A stretch of 37,633 bases of DNA, taken from the IMG/VR virus record IMGVR_UViG_2939177367_000002, one strand, 5' to 3'. The notes below the pieces were generated by a model. It ran no database searches. It was not told the origin of the DNA and saw only the letters and a list, made by a program, of their open reading frames with translations. This stretch comes from a virus (Duplodnaviria; Heunggongvirae; Uroviricota; Caudoviricetes). Both the position numbers and the translations under genes were made by a program. This document shows, one piece after another, positions 1-9,430 of this stretch. The stretch's first letter is position 1. Each line of letters begins with the position of its first letter.

Positions 1-1053
1 TTATGGGGTAATGCCAACCGCTGCCGCCACTTTGTCGCCACTTGGCAGCGTTGCCAGAGGATTGAAACGGAGCGCCGTTTCTAGATGATCCGGTGCCAGA
101 TGTGCGTAACGCATAGTCATTTTTATATCGTGGTGTCCGAGAATTTTTTGTAAGGCCAGAATGTTTCCACCCGACATCATGAAGTGCGCCGCAAACGTAT
201 GGCGCAGAACGTGTGTGAGTTGACCGCGAGGGAGCACGATAGACGTTTTTTCCATCACGGATAAAAATTGAAAATAGCAGTCTGTGAAGAAATTGAACCC
301 ATCAAGCGCCATGATCTCTTCGTAAAGCTCTTTACTGATAGGGATGCTTCTGTTTTTCTTCCCCTTCGTTCTGACAAAGGTAATTCGGTATTTGGTCACC
401 TGTGAGCGGGTAAGATTTACGGCTTCACGCCAGCGTGCGCCTGTGCTTAAGCATATCTTAACTACCAGTGCCAGAATTGGGTCCTGACGTTTGCAATCAG
501 CCAGCAATTCAACAATCTGCTCATGGGTAAGCCATGCCATCTCTTTTTCTGCGATGGTGAATTTTCGCATGTTCTCCAGTGGGTTCGGATACGACCATTC
601 GCCCAGACGGGATAGTTCGCTAAAAACACTACTTAGATAGCTTTGCTCCAGGTTAATGGTGACCGGGCTTGCTCCTTTCTTCCATTTCTCGCTGAAGTAG
701 ATCTCGCCTGTCAGGCGTTTATCTCGATAGTGGGCAAACATTTTAGAGGTGAGATCGGTTGCAAGAGGATTGCCCAGAGCGTCAACCATCAACAGCAATT
801 TGTCATAGACATGCTGCCCAGCTGTCAGAGATTTACCATGTAGTTTGAACCATAGCTCAACCACGTCTTTCAGTGTTCGACGATCCACTGATTCACCCAG
901 CCAGGGCTTTGCTTCGGTTTCTTCCATCGTGTGGCGCTCAAAAGCCAGTGCTTCGCCTTTGGTAGCGAATTGTTTACGCACACGACGCCCACTTCGTCCG
1001 GCGGGGTAACATTCGCAAAGCCATTTCCCTGTGGTTAGTTTTCGTACTGCCAT
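1..1053 (-). CDS. int: Tyrosine integrase (P2/186-like), 350 aa; stop codon at window positions 1-3
   Basis: ATG at 1053 (reverse complement). C-terminal catalytic signature readable in translation: R in LSTGARWREA, H-x-x-R in HVLRHTFAAH, Tyr in MTMRYAHL. Sits at the prophage end next to the att repeat. Confidence 0.9.
   Translation of the reverse strand: MAVRKLTTGKWLCECYPAGRSGRRVRKQFATKGEALAFERHTMEETEAKPWLGESVDRRTLKDVVELWFKLHGKSLTAGQHVYDKLLLMVDALGNPLATDLTSKMFAHYRDKRLTGEIYFSEKWKKGASPVTINLEQSYLSSVFSELSRLGEWSYPNPLENMRKFTIAEKEMAWLTHEQIVELLADCKRQDPILALVVKICLSTGARWREAVNLTRSQVTKYRITFVRTKGKKNRSIPISKELYEEIMALDGFNFFTDCYFQFLSVMEKTSIVLPRGQLTHVLRHTFAAHFMMSGGNILALQKILGHHDIKMTMRYAHLAPDHLETALRFNPLATLPSGDKVAAAVGITP
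21..40. repeat. Putative attL core (CTGCCGCCACTTTGTCGCCA), left copy of a 20-bp direct repeat flanking the prophage
   Basis: 19/20 identity with 34781..34800 (CTGCCGCCAATTTGTCGCCA); the copies sit at the int and ogr ends. Lies inside the last codons of int. Confidence 0.6.
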
Positions 1054-1077
1054 AAAAAGCCCTCATATCAGAGGGCT
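1054..1077 (-). terminator. Hairpin (AGCCCTC-N7-GAGGGCT) followed by a T-run on the minus strand, immediately upstream of the int start codon
   Basis: Plus strand reads aaaagccctcatatcagagggct; on the minus strand the stem is followed by TTTTT and then the int ATG. The GAGGG of the 3' arm is also the only plausible int ribosome-binding site. Confidence 0.4.
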
Positions 1078-1085
1078 AAATTTAA

Positions 1086-1101
1086 CTGTATATGTAACCA
1101 G
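1086..1101. promoter_or_regulatory. LexA-box-like palindrome CTGTATATGTAACCAG (CTG-N10-CAG) inside a promoter-like spacer upstream of int
   Basis: Invariant CTG/CAG ends with an AT-rich centre. On the minus strand it lies between TTGATT and TTAAAT hexamers spaced 17 nt apart. Confidence 0.3.
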
Positions 1102-1135
1102 TAATCAATGTGTGATTACTATGAAAGATACATTG

Positions 1136-2812
1136 CTAAGCAACATGTAGTTCATCGTTGGCGGAAGTGGCTGCTTTGCGCTCCTGCTCAATAGCTAGAG
1201 ACTCTCTATATTCTTTCGCCTCTGCAAACATTGTCCAGTGGGCGTTGATGTTCATGTCTTCAATAACTGATTTGATTTCTTTTAAATTTACGTTAAAAAA
1301 CTCTTTTCGTGAGTTAATTTTATTGACCTGCTTTTCGTTGAAAACTTTATGCAGATGGTTTTCTAATGATGGTGCATCATCACTATAAATCATCGCATGA
1401 ACATCGAACGAAAAAGGAACACTAGCATCTCCGAGTTCACGAACACGATCAAGTGGTTCAAGGCGGCGTGTCATTCCAATTTTATATACATCTTCGCCAA
1501 ATGAACCAATATTACTAATGATATAGACGTGGCCTGATCTGGTTTGTTGAGCCATAGAAATAGCTCGTTGATTTTTAGCTTCAGCTTCTTCATATTTTAA
1601 CTGTAGTTCAGCTATTTTTTGCTCTAAAGCTAAGCGTTGTTCTTCATTTGCAAGCATAAGTTCTTTCGTTGCTTTATTTATAGCTTGCTGAATAGCTTTT
1701 TCTTCTTTTTCAGCTTCTTTTATCGCTTTTTCATATTCTCTACGAGCTCTTTCCTCTTCACGAAGCTGTTCTTTAATCCTTCTTTGCTCTTCTTTTTCTT
1801 CGAGCATAATTTCATTAACTGCTACACCCCATTTTAGCTCGTTGAGTCTTGCCTGAAGATAGATGTCACTTATTTTTGCGGACCTAAAGGCAGAGCCATT
1901 GTAATTTACTAGTTGAAATGCATCTTTTATTTCTTGGGAAAGTTTTCCAAAATTGTTGTGTTTGACTTTTGATAAAATACTGTCAACTCTTCCATTGAAG
2001 GCATCCAAAACAAAGTTTATGGCAGTATTACGCCTGTTTTGCTCAACATAATCACACGAAGCAGCTTTATTAGTTTTTATTAATGATTTGGTTAACTCTC
2101 TGGCTTTTTGTAATTCCTTGCCTGCATCTGTAAATTCATAATTTTCTGCCAGCTCATCAAGTACACTACGGTTAGGGATGATCCATTCATCACCATAACC
2201 TTCAATTTTATTTTTCATTGATTTTGCAACTGCTTCATATTTTTCTGCAAACTCTTTAGCTTCATATGCTGAACCAGCAATCTCCTTTGCTCTTTCTTCT
2301 GCATCAGAAATAATTTTTACTGCATTGTCATTAGCATTTGAGATTAGCTCATTTGCTTTATTATTAGCATTATCAAGACGTTCTTTGGCTTTCAGGCGTG
2401 CATCGCGAGCGTCTTTGGTGATTGCTATAGCTTCGCTATTAGCGTTGCTTATTGTCATCTGAGCTTGATAATTTGCTTCGTTTACTGTTTTAGCCGCCTT
2501 AATTTGGGCTTCATCTATTTTTTGCTTGGCTATTGAGTCCGCATTTTTTATCTTATTCTCTGCATCCATTACTGCGCTGTGCAATTCTTCGTATTGCCAC
2601 AATGGTGCTGCTCGCCCTTCAAGCTCTGATAATTCTCGTACGGTCTGTGCTAGTTTTTCTTGATTTTCAATCAGTTGGTTAGAAAGGGCTATGTTGTTAG
2701 CTGTCAGGTTATCTATAGCCGCTTTGTGTTTTTTACTTTGTTTAAATAATATTACAGCTAGAACAGGGGCGAGAAATGCTAATAAGAGTATAACGATGGC
2801 AAATGAATTCAT
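1136..2812 (-). CDS. Cargo protein, 558 aa: N-terminal transmembrane helix, long coiled coil, C-terminal T5orf172/GIY-YIG-like domain (DUF4041-like central region)
   Basis: ATG at 2812 with AAGGAT ribosome-binding site only 20 bp after the repressor stop. N-terminus MNSFAIVILLLAFLAPVLAVILF is hydrophobic. C-terminus contains GHVYIISN...YKIGMTRR...FDVHAMIYS resembling the T5orf172 fold. Region is visibly AT-rich compared with flanking phage genes. Confidence 0.75.
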   Translation of the reverse strand: MNSFAIVILLLAFLAPVLAVILFKQSKKHKAAIDNLTANNIALSNQLIENQEKLAQTVRELSELEGRAAPLWQYEELHSAVMDAENKIKNADSIAKQKIDEAQIKAAKTVNEANYQAQMTISNANSEAIAITKDARDARLKAKERLDNANNKANELISNANDNAVKIISDAEERAKEIAGSAYEAKEFAEKYEAVAKSMKNKIEGYGDEWIIPNRSVLDELAENYEFTDAGKELQKARELTKSLIKTNKAASCDYVEQNRRNTAINFVLDAFNGRVDSILSKVKHNNFGKLSQEIKDAFQLVNYNGSAFRSAKISDIYLQARLNELKWGVAVNEIMLEEKEEQRRIKEQLREEERARREYEKAIKEAEKEEKAIQQAINKATKELMLANEEQRLALEQKIAELQLKYEEAEAKNQRAISMAQQTRSGHVYIISNIGSFGEDVYKIGMTRRLEPLDRVRELGDASVPFSFDVHAMIYSDDAPSLENHLHKVFNEKQVNKINSRKEFFNVNLKEIKSVIEDMNINAHWTMFAEAKEYRESLAIEQERKAATSANDELHVA

Positions 2813-2832: not shown

Positions 2833-3429
2833 TTAATTCGAGACTATTGTACTTCTTATACAAGCAACCACTTCAATATCAGAAAATGCACATTCAAAGC
2901 TATTCTCTGCTGTTGTAATTTTAATCATTCCTTTAGGAAGCCTTGTGATTTTTCGAATGGAATAGGTTCCGTCGATATTGATTAACCAGTTTCCATCAAG
3001 TACTTCAGAAAATTTTTGATCACAAATGTATGTGACGAGTCCATCCTGAACAACAATTGGTGATGAAAGGTTTGCAGGAAGAAATGATGAATCGAAGACA
3101 TATGAACCGTCTTCAATCATTTTGCCTGCGGCAAGGCGAAACTTAACAAGCTCTTCTGTAGCTGCTGTCAGCGAGCTTTGCTTAAGGCCTTGTCCGGTAG
3201 TTAACCATTTGAGGGAGGTTCCTGTTTCAAGAGCACATTGGATTATCCAGTCAGCAGGAAATGTATCCCGCAAATACCTGTTCGCTAGTGTGCTTTTTGA
3301 TACTTCCAAGTGATCAGCTAAAGCCTGTCGTGTCGTAAAGCCATAGGCTTCGACTAATCGCTCAATCGCAGCCTTACCACCTTTATTGGGATTTATTTTG
3401 ATCTCACTTGGGTACTTTGATGTTGACAT
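2833..3429 (-). CDS. cI: CI-type immunity repressor (phage 186 CI-like), 198 aa
   Basis: ATG at 3429. N-terminal helix-turn-helix-like segment (TTRQALADHLEVSKSTLANRYL). Position between int and a divergent Apl/CII-like operon matches the 186 switch region. Confidence 0.75.
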   Translation of the reverse strand: MSTSKYPSEIKINPNKGGKAAIERLVEAYGFTTRQALADHLEVSKSTLANRYLRDTFPADWIIQCALETGTSLKWLTTGQGLKQSSLTAATEELVKFRLAAGKMIEDGSYVFDSSFLPANLSSPIVVQDGLVTYICDQKFSEVLDGNWLINIDGTYSIRKITRLPKGMIKITTAENSFECAFSDIEVVACIRSTIVSN

Positions 3430-3778: not shown

Positions 3779-4288
3779 ATGTTTGATTACCAAGTTTCCA
3801 AACATCCACATTTTGATGAAGCCTGTCGTGCATTCGCACTGCGCCACAATCTGGTGCAACTGGCAGAACGTGCGGGCATGAATGTGCAGATTCTGCGGAA
3901 CAAGCTGAACCCAGCTCAACCTCATTTATTAACCGCACCAGAAATCTGGCTGCTTACCGATCTGACTGAAGATTCAACGTTGGTAGATGGTTTTCTGGCA
4001 CAGATTCATTGTCTGCCATGTGTACCGATTAATGAGGTAGCAAAAGAGAAACTGCCGCATTACGTCATGAGCGCAACTGCAGAGATCGGGCGTGTTGCAG
4101 CAGGTGCGGTATCTGGTGATGTAAAAACTAGTGCCGGTCGTCGTGATGCTATCAGCAGCATTAACTCTGTAACACGACTGATGGCGCTGGCTGCTGTTTC
4201 ATTGCAAGCCCGTTTACAGGCTAATCCTGCGATGGCGAGTGCAGTTGATACCATGACTGGCCTTGGTGCTTCATTCGGTTTGCTGTGA
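3779..4288 (+). CDS. cII: CII-like early regulator (phage 186 CII family), 169 aa
   Basis: ATG at 3779 with AGAGG upstream. Translation [45 protein letters not shown]... strongly resembles 186 CII as I recall it. Confidence 0.75.
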
Positions 4289-8936: not shown

Positions 8937-8956
8937 TACTGTAAATATAAACAGTG
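8937..8956. promoter_or_regulatory. LexA (SOS) box TACTGTAAATATAAACAGTG
   Basis: CTG-N10-CAG with AT-rich centre, close to the E. coli consensus TACTGTATATATATACAGTA; about 40 bp upstream of the 8997 start codon. Confidence 0.6.
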
Positions 8957-8996
8957 GTTATATTTACAGTATTGCTTTGGTGTCATAGGAGGAAAG

Positions 8997-9185
8997 ATGC
9001 AGGACTATTTTTTGGAGTCTTTGAAGCTCCAGCGCATTGATTTTTTTCTTAAGCTTGTAGCGGCTAGTGAGTGTAGTGATGAAGAGAAGGGGCTGGCTTT
9101 GCAGTGGGTTTCTGAACTAACAGATGAACTCATGGCAAAAATCAGAACCCACGAATACAACCGCTCAATGGATGTCATCAGTTGA
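8997..9185 (+). CDS. Small SOS-controlled protein, 62 aa; possibly the N-terminal module of a Tum-like antirepressor
   Basis: ATG at 8997 with AGGAGG ribosome-binding site directly downstream of the LexA box; followed 11 nt later by the DinI-like gene. Confidence 0.5.
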   Translation: MQDYFLESLKLQRIDFFLKLVAASECSDEEKGLALQWVSELTDELMAKIRTHEYNRSMDVIS

Positions 9186-9196
9186 GGTGACTTTTT

Positions 9197-9430
9197 ATGC
9201 GCATTGAAATAATGATCGATAAAGAGCAGAAGATTAGCCAGTCTACCCTGGACGCCCTTGAATCCGAGCTTTACCGCAATCTGCGTCCTCTGTATCCCAA
9301 AATGGTAATTCGTATCCGCAAAGGTAGCTCTAACGGTGTGGAACTGACCGGATTGCAACTGGACGAAGAAAGAAAACAAGTGATGAAAATTATGCAGAAG
9401 GTGTGGGAAGACGACAGCTGGCTGCATTAA
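9197..9430 (+). CDS. DinI-like protein, 77 aa
   Basis: ATG at 9197 with GAGGTGA ribosome-binding site. Translation MRIEIMIDK...IRIRKGSSNGVELTGL...VWEDDSWLH resembles the DinI family as I recall it. Confidence 0.7.
   Translation: MRIEIMIDKEQKISQSTLDALESELYRNLRPLYPKMVIRIRKGSSNGVELTGLQLDEERKQVMKIMQKVWEDDSWLH

Follow-up and report, generated by a model that had tools for sequence, protein, structure and literature searches.

We report that the integrase gene int of this phage very probably has its own promoter, with a predicted LexA operator in the spacer between the -35 and -10 hexamers, and that int is probably made on a signal of its own and not with the repressor gene, as it is in phage 186. 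The 82 bp ahead of int (positions 1054-1135 of the window, by which we mean the whole stretch of 37,633 nucleotides analysed) are likely, in our judgement, to form a self-contained int cassette, P_int, which would be repressed by LexA, probably boosted by the phage CII protein, and insulated from read-through of the operon made up of cI and the cargo gene that follows it. In the 186 paradigm, int is expressed as part of the pL/pE operon of the repressor, and the sole route by which LexA acts is the antirepressor Tum.

Organisation of the interval upstream of int

The elements of the interval were read directly from the minus strand and are given in window coordinates, numbered on the + strand (Table 1). 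This reading confirmed two parts of the original prediction: TTGATT and TTAAAT are separated by 17 nt that contain CTG-N10-CAG, and GAGGG, in the 3' arm of a hairpin, is the sole candidate ribosome-binding site of int. The int start at 1053 is correct, as the N-terminus MAVRKLTTGKW aligns from residue 1 in at least 70 homologue loci, and the product matches PF24624 (3e-32) and PF00589 (7e-22). Upstream of the hairpin lies the cargo gene, for which the SNIPE/PD-Lambda-1 reference is PMC13190303, and RNA from this gene would run into the hairpin.

Table 1. Features of the int region and of the regulatory loci compared with it, in window coordinates.
Feature	Position	Strand	Description and basis
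int	1-1053	-	350-aa tyrosine integrase; ORF list; Pfam Int_N + Phage_integrase
int ATG	1053-1051	-	
T5 run	1054-1058	-	terminator tail between hairpin and int ATG; sequence and terminator scan
Hairpin	1058-1077	-	AGCCCTC (1077-1071), loop tgatat (1070-1065), GAGGGCT (1064-1058)
int Shine-Dalgarno (SD) GAGGG	1064-1060	-	in the hairpin 3' arm, 6-7 nt from the ATG
Anti-SD	1077-1071	-	the hairpin 5' arm; overlaps the predicted transcription start
Predicted P_int transcription start zone	1071-1075, centre 1073	-	inferred from the -10 and the CII half-site spacing
-10 hexamer TTAAAT	1085-1080	-	direct reading
Alternative -10 TAAATT	1084-1079	-	18-nt spacer
17-nt spacer aCTGGTTACATATACAG	1102-1086	-	holds the CTG-N10-CAG core CTGGTTACATATACAG (1101-1086)
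Predicted LexA (SOS) box AACTGTATATGTAACCAGTA	1084-1103		core CTG-N10-CAG at 1086-1101; fills the promoter spacer; matrix score
-35 hexamer TTGATT	1108-1103	-	direct reading
CII-type inverted repeat ATGTATC-N12-CACACAT	1108-1133		left half-site 1133-1127, right half-site 1114-1108
Cargo stop codon TAG	1138-1136	-	
Cargo gene	1136-2812	-	558-aa PD-Lambda-1/SNIPE membrane nuclease; DUF4041 + T5orf172 (Pfam); PADLOC PD-Lambda-1 2e-120
cI repressor, 186 type	2833-3429	-	PF07022, PF16452; 20 nt ahead of the cargo gene
Phage's own pE CII site ATGTTTG-N13-CAAACAT	3779-3805		at the start of cII; 14/14
Two overlapping LexA boxes	8937-8971	+	24.5 and 17.0 bits; phage SOS operon

A probable int promoter with a predicted LexA operator in its spacer

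Judged by its hexamers alone, the promoter in the window is unremarkable. Each hexamer agrees with the consensus at 4/6 positions (8/12 in total), and a consensus promoter scan with a threshold of 9/12 and an A required at position 2 of the -10 omits the site. Because this threshold is missed, it is conservation, and not the hexamers of the window, that argues for a promoter. Among 43 distinct relatives, the -35 reads TTGACC in 16, TTTACA in 8 and TTGACA in 7 (31/43 together), and the hexamer directly after CAG reads TTAAAT in 18, TAAAAT in 5 and TAAAAA in 4. The box begins 0-1 nt past the -35 in the relatives and the -10 begins immediately after CAG; the box thus occupies the spacer of the predicted promoter, conserved at orthologous positions. 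We infer a transcription start at about 1073, which is 7 nt past the -10; the right CII half-site, centred on 1111, is then 38 nt away, the spacing known from 186 pE. On the + strand, the promoter scan gave no promoter-like site in the interval.

The spacer holds a 16-bp palindrome, CTGT-N8-ACAG, with an AT-rich centre (CTGTATATGTAACCAG, 1086-1101), and the box AACTGTATATGTAACCAGTA is identical to the LexA consensus TACTGTATATATATACAGTA at 16/20 positions. The bare CTG-N10-CAG pattern is unspecific, since the window has 23 copies of it where 10.4 are expected, and matrix scoring was used in place of such uninformative motif counting. The matrix was symmetrised and built from 18 E. coli LexA sites (PMC3009722), whose own leave-one-out scores run from 6.6 to 27.6 bits. 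On this scale the int box reaches 23.7 bits, within the range of the training sites and comparable to the boxes of recN and uvrB, and it ranks second among 37,614 window positions (mean -28, sd 9.4). The first rank is taken by the operator of the phage's own SOS operon, the boxes of which served as an internal positive control. Downstream of them lie a 62-aa ORF (8997-9185) and a DinI-like ORF (9197-9430); the second of these, 77 aa long, shares 40% identity with 186 Tum over the C-terminal part of Tum. The matrix scan found no CI-operator-like copy of the int box at the pR/pL region of the window.

Of 71 int-homologue loci, 39 have a site of at least 14 bits between -47 and -54 relative to the int ATG, with only 9 other such sites across 608 kb; in the relatives, CTG and CAG are constant and the AT-rich centre is variable. 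The original prediction of an own, possibly SOS-responsive, int promoter is thus supported, both by these 39 loci and by the 80/80 viral contigs described below. In the collection of papers that was searched, none describes int of a P2/186-like phage as controlled by LexA or CII.

A CII-type repeat that ends at the -35

A further element, absent from the original prediction, is the inverted repeat at 1133-1108, which is a candidate site of the 186 CII type, in the predicted geometry of pE. The reference half-sites were taken from the annotated 186 record (NC_001317), which gives ATGTTTG-N13-CAAACAT at pE. The repeat in the window agrees with them at 11/14 positions, which is among the weakest matches, and its 12-nt spacer places the half-site centres 19 bp apart, against 20 bp (13-nt spacer) in 186; about half of the relatives have 13 nt and about half 12 nt. 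Shearwin and Egan (2000) are said to have found that a 1-bp change in spacing cuts CII affinity markedly. If transcription starts at 1073, the predicted centres are -57 and -38, to be compared with -58 and -38 for 186 CII at pE (PMC6593788).

All element-bearing loci have a CII-type site (11-14/14) at this place, as do 77/80 viral contigs, against a background of about 10 matches of at least 12/14 in 610 kb. In every element-bearing locus, the last base of the repeat coincides with the first T of the -35. Its end-to-end length is constant at 26-27 nt and its half-sites follow ATGTWTG/CAWACAT, with an inner spacer that is free in sequence. The phage also encodes a cognate activator: cII lies at 3779-4288, and its product is 70% identical to 186 CII. 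The phage's own pE site, with half-sites identical to those annotated in 186, is the sole exact match to ATGTWT-N13-16-AWACAT in the window (0.1 expected).

The two promoters differ in their -35. At pE it is TGTTGC in 186 and TGGTCG in the window, while P_int has TTGATT in the window and most relatives read TTGACC or TTGACA, so that the poor, activator-dependent -35 of the pE type is not found at P_int. Because the P_int -35 is often near consensus and the pE-type -35 poor, CII may be dispensable or just modulatory at int. Two other identities for the upstream repeat were rejected. A late-promoter site of the Ogr/B type (TGT-N12-ACA) does not fit, as TGT and ACA are 18-19 nt apart here, and attP, Int-arm and Apl sites are excluded by their place in 186, past the 3' end of int, and by their different consensus.

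A hairpin that holds the int ribosome-binding site

The hairpin ahead of int is the top terminator-like site in the first 4.5 kb of the window, with the GC-rich stem (7 pairs, 5 of them G-C), short loop (6 nt) and adjoining T-run (T5) of a terminator. Folding of the int leader recovers it at -13.3 kcal/mol (z = -5.6 against shuffles), as the original prediction had supposed. A hairpin is present at the same place in about 27/31 distinct relatives (z from about -4 to -7), built from at least 10 unrelated stem sequences but always with the SD in the 3' arm, and in all clades it begins 0-3 nt past the -10. T-runs of 5-8 are confined to the Escherichia/Klebsiella-type clade, with runs of 1-3 elsewhere; Serratia, Yersinia, Rahnella and Pantoea keep the hairpin but lack the T-run. 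An alignment-based search for covariation (MAFFT and RNAalifold, 28 leaders) predicted 0 pairs, because the hairpins of different clades are out of register. A structure-fitted alignment was avoided as circular, and per-sequence folds with shuffles were used.

Since the predicted start lies inside the 5' arm, the hairpin would stop or silence read-through from cI and the cargo gene and would not gate the RNA of int itself. When transcripts are modelled with +7 as their first base, folding gives only -1.5 to -6 kcal/mol (a single one reaches -8.2), whereas the full leader gives -8 to -15. A pure insulator should be strong only where there is no terminator upstream, and this expectation is partly borne out: the mean is -8.4 kcal/mol with an upstream terminator and -12.1 without (Mann-Whitney, p = 0.005), but 5/7 distinct Rahnella/Ewingella sequences (L029, L031, L033, L038, L079) combine an upstream terminator with a strong hairpin that lacks a T-run. 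Because of these exceptions, the hairpin may also act on P_int RNA, if the start is 2-3 nt farther upstream. The earlier idea that a terminator or attenuator gates int translation thus stands in part, in that the SD-holding hairpin is conserved; the T-run is limited to one clade. As the predicted start is inside the 5' arm, the mechanism does not appear to be an attenuator. Nor is the hairpin solely the terminator of the cargo gene, which would have spoken against the original prediction, as it travels with int behind other cargo, behind ogr, and where there is no cargo.

Rfam searches gave a hit to the RyhB sRNA (RF00057) at 1051-1119, with 28.5 bits against a gathering threshold of 55, which was judged a chance match of an AT-rich stretch with a terminator-like hairpin; sub-threshold hits to InvR and SpF51 were likewise judged chance.

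Conservation and gene context

The arrangement of -35, CTGT-N8-ACAG and -10 at a fixed distance from the int ATG occurs in 39/71 int-homologue loci and is spread over about 18 enterobacterial genera. A motif-first control points the same way: all 80 IMG/VR contigs found with the composite motif encode an Int homologue (52-100% identity), which in tblastn starts 24-29 nt past the -10 on the same strand. Among complete E. coli genomes, 1099/5426 (about 20%) match the region.

The cassette is found behind SNIPE, behind other cargo (4LV2017, E. coli H7, AR434), without cargo (ESSI2_ev040), and behind ogr (Rahnella). It is absent where cI abuts int, as in 186 and 186-type loci, and also from some cargo-bearing relatives (L036, L040-L045). 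The contrast with 186 drawn in the original prediction holds: there the stop codon of cI overlaps the int ATG (TAATG), and no such element is present. This agrees with the report that 186 pE expresses both CI and integrase (PMC8538670).

A model for int control and its likeness to known systems

From the elements described above, their statistics and their conservation, we propose the following sequence of events, in which the binding of LexA and of CII, the transcription start and the termination are predicted, as is the logic that links them. A sigma-70 promoter (1108-1103, 1085-1080) would be aimed at int, with its start near 1073. In an undamaged lysogen, LexA bound to the spacer operator (1103-1084, about -30 to -11) would occlude RNA polymerase; once LexA is cleaved in the SOS response, int would be freed for transcription at the same moment as the phage SOS operon (8937-9430). 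Because 186-type half-sites sit at pE-like positions upstream, phage CII could boost P_int from 1133-1127 and 1114-1108, both when lysogeny is established and after derepression of pR, which would make P_int a functional analogue of lambda pI. The hairpin, 3 nt past the -10, should terminate the pL/pE transcript of cI and cargo shortly before int, because a T-run follows it in this clade; any RNA that escaped termination would have its int ribosome-binding site masked. P_int transcripts would start within the 5' arm, lack the anti-SD and so be translatable. The net effect would be to uncouple int from the constitutive cI-cargo operon, so that it is made only on an SOS and/or a CII signal, and this uncoupling would permit cargo genes between cI and int. 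One might speculate further, and here we are tentative and lean towards doubt, that this is a dual-input switch in which the choice of promoter decides whether int mRNA can be translated, and that this design made the junction of cI and int in 186-like prophages a hotspot where SNIPE and other defence cargo can insert safely. The supply of Int for lysogenisation of an undamaged cell sits poorly with a strong LexA box, and we counted this against the cassette model.

P_int resembles 186 pE in its candidate inverted 7-bp half-sites of the ATGTTTG/CAAACAT type, two helical turns apart with predicted centres close to the -58/-38 of pE, in a right half-site that abuts the -35, and in a cognate CII in the same phage. 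It differs in its place directly before int, whereas pE is upstream of cI, in its degenerate half-sites (11/14 here), 12-nt spacer in about half of the cases and often near-consensus -35, and in the predicted LexA box of its spacer, for which pE has no equivalent. Lambda pI, a separate CII-activated int promoter at the end of the upstream gene, follows the same logic of an int promoter turned on by the phage's establishment activator. Lambda CII is however an unrelated activator, with TTGC-N6-TTGC as its recognition sequence in contrast to the 27-bp inverted repeat of the 186 type; int made from lambda pL is controlled by sib retroregulation, in place of which P_int has a 5' hairpin; and pI is not known to be controlled by LexA.

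The predicted direct control by LexA has a parallel in integrons: PintI, which drives a tyrosine recombinase gene, has a LexA box over its core promoter, and SOS licenses recombination (PMC3108266, PMC3323433). P_int would have the same overlap, but its recombinase is a P2/186-family phage Int (Int_N + Phage_integrase) and not IntI, it adds a CII-type site and an SD-masking hairpin, and the expected outcome is prophage excision or integration and not cassette shuffling. LexA also acts directly on a phage promoter at 186 p95, which drives the tum SOS operon and has its window counterpart at 8937-8971 with the DinI-like ORF; p95, however, drives an antirepressor and not int, and no LexA site is annotated near int in the 186 record. 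Finally, intS of KplE1, like other integrase genes of this kind, has its own promoter, where IntS and TorI exert negative autoregulation at overlapping attL sites (PMC2951348). Both would be int genes under a tightly controlled promoter of their own, not co-transcribed with regulators, but our phage has attP/attL past the 3' end of int, and LexA and CII as predicted regulators.

Alternative explanations

The simplest alternative is that hairpin and T-run are a plain terminator of the cI-cargo operon, that the likeness to a promoter and a LexA site is fortuitous in AT-rich DNA, and that int is expressed by partial read-through as in 186. The quality of the hairpin as a terminator, hexamers too weak for the scanner and the frequency of bare CTG-N10-CAG would all fit. 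We nevertheless regard this as very unlikely, given the score of the box, the retention of the hairpin without a T-run in four genera and also without cargo, the motif-first result of 80/80 contigs with the motif beside int, and the fixed distances of box, -35, -10 and CII-type repeat across some 18 genera with unrelated upstream genes. Less probable still, to the point that we give it hardly any weight, is that the box serves a divergent or antisense promoter on the + strand, reading into the cargo gene from its 3' end. By its symmetry a LexA box gives no direction of its own, but the + strand has no promoter-like site here, variable cargo lies on the other side of the box, and the -35/-10, the CII geometry and the fixed 24-29 nt to the int ATG all point towards int.

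Two further explanations accept the LexA-regulated promoter, and each deserves more weight than these, though we think both unlikely. The hairpin could act on P_int's own mRNA and not on read-through, either as a 5'-terminal stem that masks the SD and keeps Int low or as an early attenuator. P2 Int is reportedly poorly translated and autoregulated post-transcriptionally (Yu, Barreiro and Haggard-Ljungquist, 1994), which would suit such a role. The start is a prediction, and one 2-3 nt farther upstream would include most of the anti-SD; 5/7 distinct Rahnella/Ewingella sequences, moreover, keep a hairpin of 9-10 bp despite their upstream terminator. Against this, the hairpin lies everywhere 0-3 nt past the -10, where starts 6-9 nt past the -10 would remove most of its 5' arm, the modelled own transcripts fold weakly, and hairpins are weaker on average behind an upstream terminator. 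Alternatively, CII is not involved at int, and the upstream repeat, in place of a CII site, could be bound by another protein or be an UP-like or structural element. The imperfect repeat in the window, one base short in spacing, the 8 matches of at least 11/14 that the window contains by this loose criterion and a good -35, unlike that of activator-dependent pE, leave room for this, at a similar level of probability. The half-sites and their pE geometry (-38/-58), the constant register and length of a repeat with a free spacer, and its position in Pantoea-type loci speak for the CII reading: in those loci it sits between the terminator and the -35, which argues for a role at the DNA level. On balance we retain the LexA-repressed, probably CII-boosted cassette as the preferred reading.

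Significance for prophage biology

A large and widespread sister group of 186-like prophages thus appears to have int on a cassette of its own, which appears to read the host SOS response directly, and probably phage CII as well. If true, this would be a simple explanation of the timing of excision in these phages. It would also explain why unrelated cargo and defence genes (SNIPE/PD-Lambda-1 and others) are found between cI and int, where they would be expressed with cI and without the integrase. Phage integrases would then join the integron IntI as recombinases under direct LexA control, and the finding would bear on the mobilisation of prophages induced by antibiotics.

Organisation of the int control region

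The window carries a 186-like (Peduoviridae) prophage, the closest records being Escherichia phage vB_EcoM-813R9 (99.9% identity) and Klebsiella phage KP12 (95.9%). Its cargo gene encodes PD-Lambda-1, alias SNIPE (PADLOC 2e-120), a membrane nuclease defence protein (PMC13190303), and is probably co-transcribed with cI, as only 20 nt separate its start from the cI stop. The cI-int interval (window 1136-2812; also int-homologue loci L001, L084 and L085) is a cargo hotspot, with the same int cassette throughout (Table).

The original prediction, a promoter with an embedded LexA-like box followed by a hairpin over the ribosome-binding site of int, is confirmed as an observation on this region: all the elements that it listed were found at the positions given (Table), and the sole Shine-Dalgarno candidate for int, GAGGG, lies within the 3' arm of the hairpin. 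The hexamers of this predicted promoter (P_int) are weak alone (8/12 match) and were not listed by the promoter scanner, and CTG-N10-CAG is common in the window (23 observed vs 10.4 expected). PMC3009722 tabulates 18 E. coli LexA sites, from which a symmetrised matrix was derived. It gives the 20-mer at 1084-1103 a score of 23.7 bits, the second highest among 37,614 positions of the window and inside the range of the validated sites (leave-one-out 6.6 to 27.6). A sub-threshold Rfam match to RyhB over 1051-1119, covering promoter and hairpin, was judged to be due to chance (28.5 bits vs a gathering score of 55, E = 0.003).

The top matrix score in the window belongs to two overlapping boxes at 8937-8971 (24.5 and 17.0 bits), followed by two ORFs. 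The 77-aa ORF shares 40% identity with the DinI-like C-terminal region of 186 Tum; similarity of the 62-aa ORF to the N-terminal antirepressor part of Tum was undetectable. The two parts of Tum appear to be split over two genes here, the first ORF being novel. This segment (8937-9430) is the SOS operon of the phage and corresponds to 186 p95, which means that host LexA is already in use by the phage and that an operator of its known type is picked up by the matrix. Some related prophages have further strong matrix sites in their immunity or cargo regions (Table).

Features of the window and of related loci (L numbers, int-homologue loci; negative positions, distance from the int ATG)
Feature	Position or locus	Strand	Remark
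cI	3429-2833	minus	
Cargo gene, 558 aa	2812-1136	minus	
int	1053-1	minus	
apl/cox-like gene		plus	
cII	3779-4288	plus	
Putative CII site ATGTATC-N12-CACACAT	1133-1108		upstream of int; 11/14 match
-35-like hexamer TTGATT	1108-1103	minus	
17-nt spacer with CTGGTTACATATACAG	CTGGTTACATATACAG at 1101-1086	minus	
-10-like hexamer TTAAAT	1085-1080	minus	
Hairpin AGCCCTC/tgatat/GAGGGCT	1077-1058	minus	
T5 run	between hairpin and int ATG (1053)	minus	
62-aa ORF	8997-9185		downstream of overlapping LexA boxes
77-aa DinI-like ORF	9197-9430		downstream of overlapping LexA boxes
Extra LexA-matrix site	L020, -3561		27.7 bits
Extra LexA-matrix site	L021, -2806		23.2 bits
Extra LexA-matrix site	L075, -1706		19.9 bits
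Extra LexA-matrix sites	L029, L030, about -1750 to -1800		15.8 bits
cI-int cargo	window		SNIPE/PD-Lambda-1
cI-int cargo	E. coli H7		63-aa ORF
cI-int cargo	E. coli AR434		314-aa ORF
cI-int cargo	Klebsiella phage 4LV2017		349-aa ORF

A CII-type repeat upstream of the -35

The reading of this region as an SOS-type int promoter was largely right but incomplete, a CII-type site having been missed. In all loci with a LexA-type box at a fixed distance from the int ATG, an inverted repeat ATGTWTG-N12/13-CAWACAT stands immediately 5' of the -35, measuring 26-27 nt end to end and sharing its final T with the start of the -35. The annotated record of 186 places a CII site, ATGTTTG-N13-CAAACAT, at pE, at the cII start; relative to pE, the centres of the half-sites lie at -38 and -58 (PMC6593788). 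This exact site is present at the window's own cII start (3779-3805), where it is the sole exact match in the window (0.1 expected), and the window CII is 70% identical to that of 186. With the start of P_int predicted at 1073, 7 nt past the -10, the right and left half-sites of the putative int-proximal site are centred at 1111 (-38) and 1130 (-57). By type of half-site and predicted geometry, the repeat appears to correspond to the site of annotated 186 pE, with the window's int-proximal copy, at only 11/14, among the weakest. Related loci match at 11-14 of 14 positions, about half of the int-proximal sites having a 12-nt spacer; background matches of at least 12/14 number about ten in 610 kb, pE sites excluded. 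In Pantoea-type loci, the repeat sits between an upstream terminator and the -35, which points to a site acting as DNA and not to a hairpin in RNA. The window cassette does not strictly belong to the pE class: its spacing differs, and it does not have the weak -35 of that class. The -35 of P_int is usually good, unlike that of pE.

Two further repeats were seen. A 9-bp inverted repeat, TAGTAATCA-cacat-TGATTACTG (window 1100-1120, minus strand), shares bases with the right CII half-site, the -35 and the start of the LexA box; it is restricted to close relatives of the window and occurs in none of the other clades. Within the int coding sequence, a CII-type repeat ATGTTTGCCCACTATCGAGATAAACGC (window 715-741, minus strand, codons for KMFAHYRDKR) matches at 11/14 in the window and up to 13/14 in L009, and is found at the matching place (end +339 from the int ATG) in L004, L005, L006, L009, L018 and L047. 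Either chance in the coding sequence or an internal CII site could account for it.

Conservation of the cassette with int

Klebsiella phage 4LV2017 shares int alone with the window (megablast), the homology stopping at 1064. Its gene upstream of int is a different one, and its int leader reads TTGACA-CTGGTTATACACACAG-TAAAAAT-GCTCTCCactGGAGGGC-AT6-ATG. We compared the region upstream of the int ATG in 77 int-homologue loci, one per bacterial species, 71 of which were usable. In 39 of the 71, a site scoring at least 14 bits on the LexA matrix starts 47-54 nt before the int ATG, in genera that include Escherichia, Klebsiella, Raoultella, Enterobacter, Citrobacter, Silvania, Dryocola, Scandinavium, Kluyvera, Serratia, Yersinia, Rahnella, Ewingella, Pantoea, Mixta, Winslowiella, Acerihabitans, Brenneria and Pectobacterium; elsewhere in all 608 kb, such sites number just 9. 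Among 43 distinct promoter regions, the -35 is TTGACC in 16, TTTACA in 8 and TTGACA in 7, the LexA box starts 0-1 nt past it, and the -10 (TTAAAT in 18, TAAAAT in 5, others) directly abuts the CAG. Across related loci CTG and CAG are retained around a drifting AT-rich centre, the hallmark of a LexA operator. A motif-first scan of IMG/VR, independent of int, returned at least 120 contigs; among the matches listed, 80 of 80 have an Int homologue (52-100% identity) 24-29 nt past the -10 on the same strand, and 77 of 80 a CII-type site of at least 11/14. The 116-nt region is matched in 1099 of 5426 complete E. coli genomes.

This positional conservation holds across contexts as well as genera. E. 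coli examples at the rcdA/ybjJ integration site share the cassette and differ in cI-int cargo, in ESSI2_ev040 the cassette fills a 78-nt gap between repressor and int without cargo, and in Rahnella it is located after ogr. As it is kept behind different cargo, no cargo or ogr, the cassette goes with int and not with the cargo. It is missing in 186 and in 186-type loci, whose int ATG is overlapped or directly preceded by the cI stop.

In Rahnella and Ewingella (L028-L038, L079), the cassette follows tail gene D, a glyoxalase-like gene and ogr on the same strand, with no 186-type cI or cII within 4 kb on either side, so that its genome position and orientation differ from those of P2 and 186. 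Degenerate copies with a TTAAAA -35 occur in L017 (Dryocola) and L061 (Enterobacter), the former with a box starting GTG rather than CTG and a weakened hairpin; both may be decaying prophages.

The hairpin over the int Shine-Dalgarno

The window hairpin, with a fold of -13.3 kcal/mol (z = -5.6), is the top terminator-like site of the first 4.5 kb. In about 27 of 31 distinct leaders, a hairpin begins 0-3 nt past the -10 and holds the Shine-Dalgarno in its 3' arm, with z-scores of about -4 to -7. Stems vary by clade (AGCCCTC/GAGGGCT, TGCTCTCC/GGAGGGCA, CTCTCCTAA/TTAGGAGAG, GTAGCCC/GGGCTAC, ACCCCCTT/AAGGGGGT, TCACATTCTC/GAGAATGTGA, TCCTCCATT/AATGGAGGA, TACAGTCCTC/GGGGGCTGTA), which argues for selection on pairing rather than on sequence, and those of different clades are out of register. 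A T-run of 5-8 is confined to the Escherichia/Klebsiella-type clade; none follows the hairpin in Serratia, Yersinia, Rahnella, Pantoea or Brenneria.

The predicted hairpin with its Shine-Dalgarno is real, but the mechanism proposed for it needs revision. Because it begins at the -10, the predicted start lies inside its 5' arm. Modelling from +7 gives transcripts with folds of only -1.5 to -6 kcal/mol, apart from a single -8.2, compared with -8 to -15 for the full leader. Given this start and this weak fold, we read the hairpin as acting on RNA derived from upstream, a reading with partial support. A live alternative is that it damps translation of P_int's own RNA, as might be expected from the 5 of 7 distinct Rahnella/Ewingella sequences (L029, L031, L033, L038, L079) that keep a strong hairpin despite an upstream terminator. 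Such damping fits poorly with the weak folding of the modelled P_int transcripts, and also with the weaker hairpins found where there is an upstream terminator (-8.4 vs -12.1 kcal/mol, p = 0.005). Action on read-through RNA is thus the reading that we prefer.

Proposed working of P_int

In 186, int is expressed from pE/pL together with cI (PMC8538670), and at int the richly annotated record of that phage shows neither a promoter nor a CII or LexA site. In the literature searched, no P2/186-like phage is described with such a cassette, although absence there is not proof of novelty. Built of 186-type parts, the cassette would resemble in its working both the CII-activated int promoter pI of lambda and integron PintI, where a LexA box lies over the integrase promoter (PMC3108266).

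LexA would occlude P_int in undamaged lysogens, and SOS would free it along with the tum-like operon; upon infection or derepression, P_int would be boosted by CII made from pR. The hairpin would uncouple int from the constitutive pL transcription of cI and cargo. In the window, it may be the terminator of the cI-SNIPE transcript right before int, and it would hide the ribosome-binding site on any read-through RNA, P_int-born transcripts being open to translation. For the supply of Int when an undamaged cell is lysogenised and LexA would occupy a 23.7-bit box, competition by CII and RNA polymerase, leakiness and pE read-through are candidates. An 82-bp fragment suffices to test the whole proposal.
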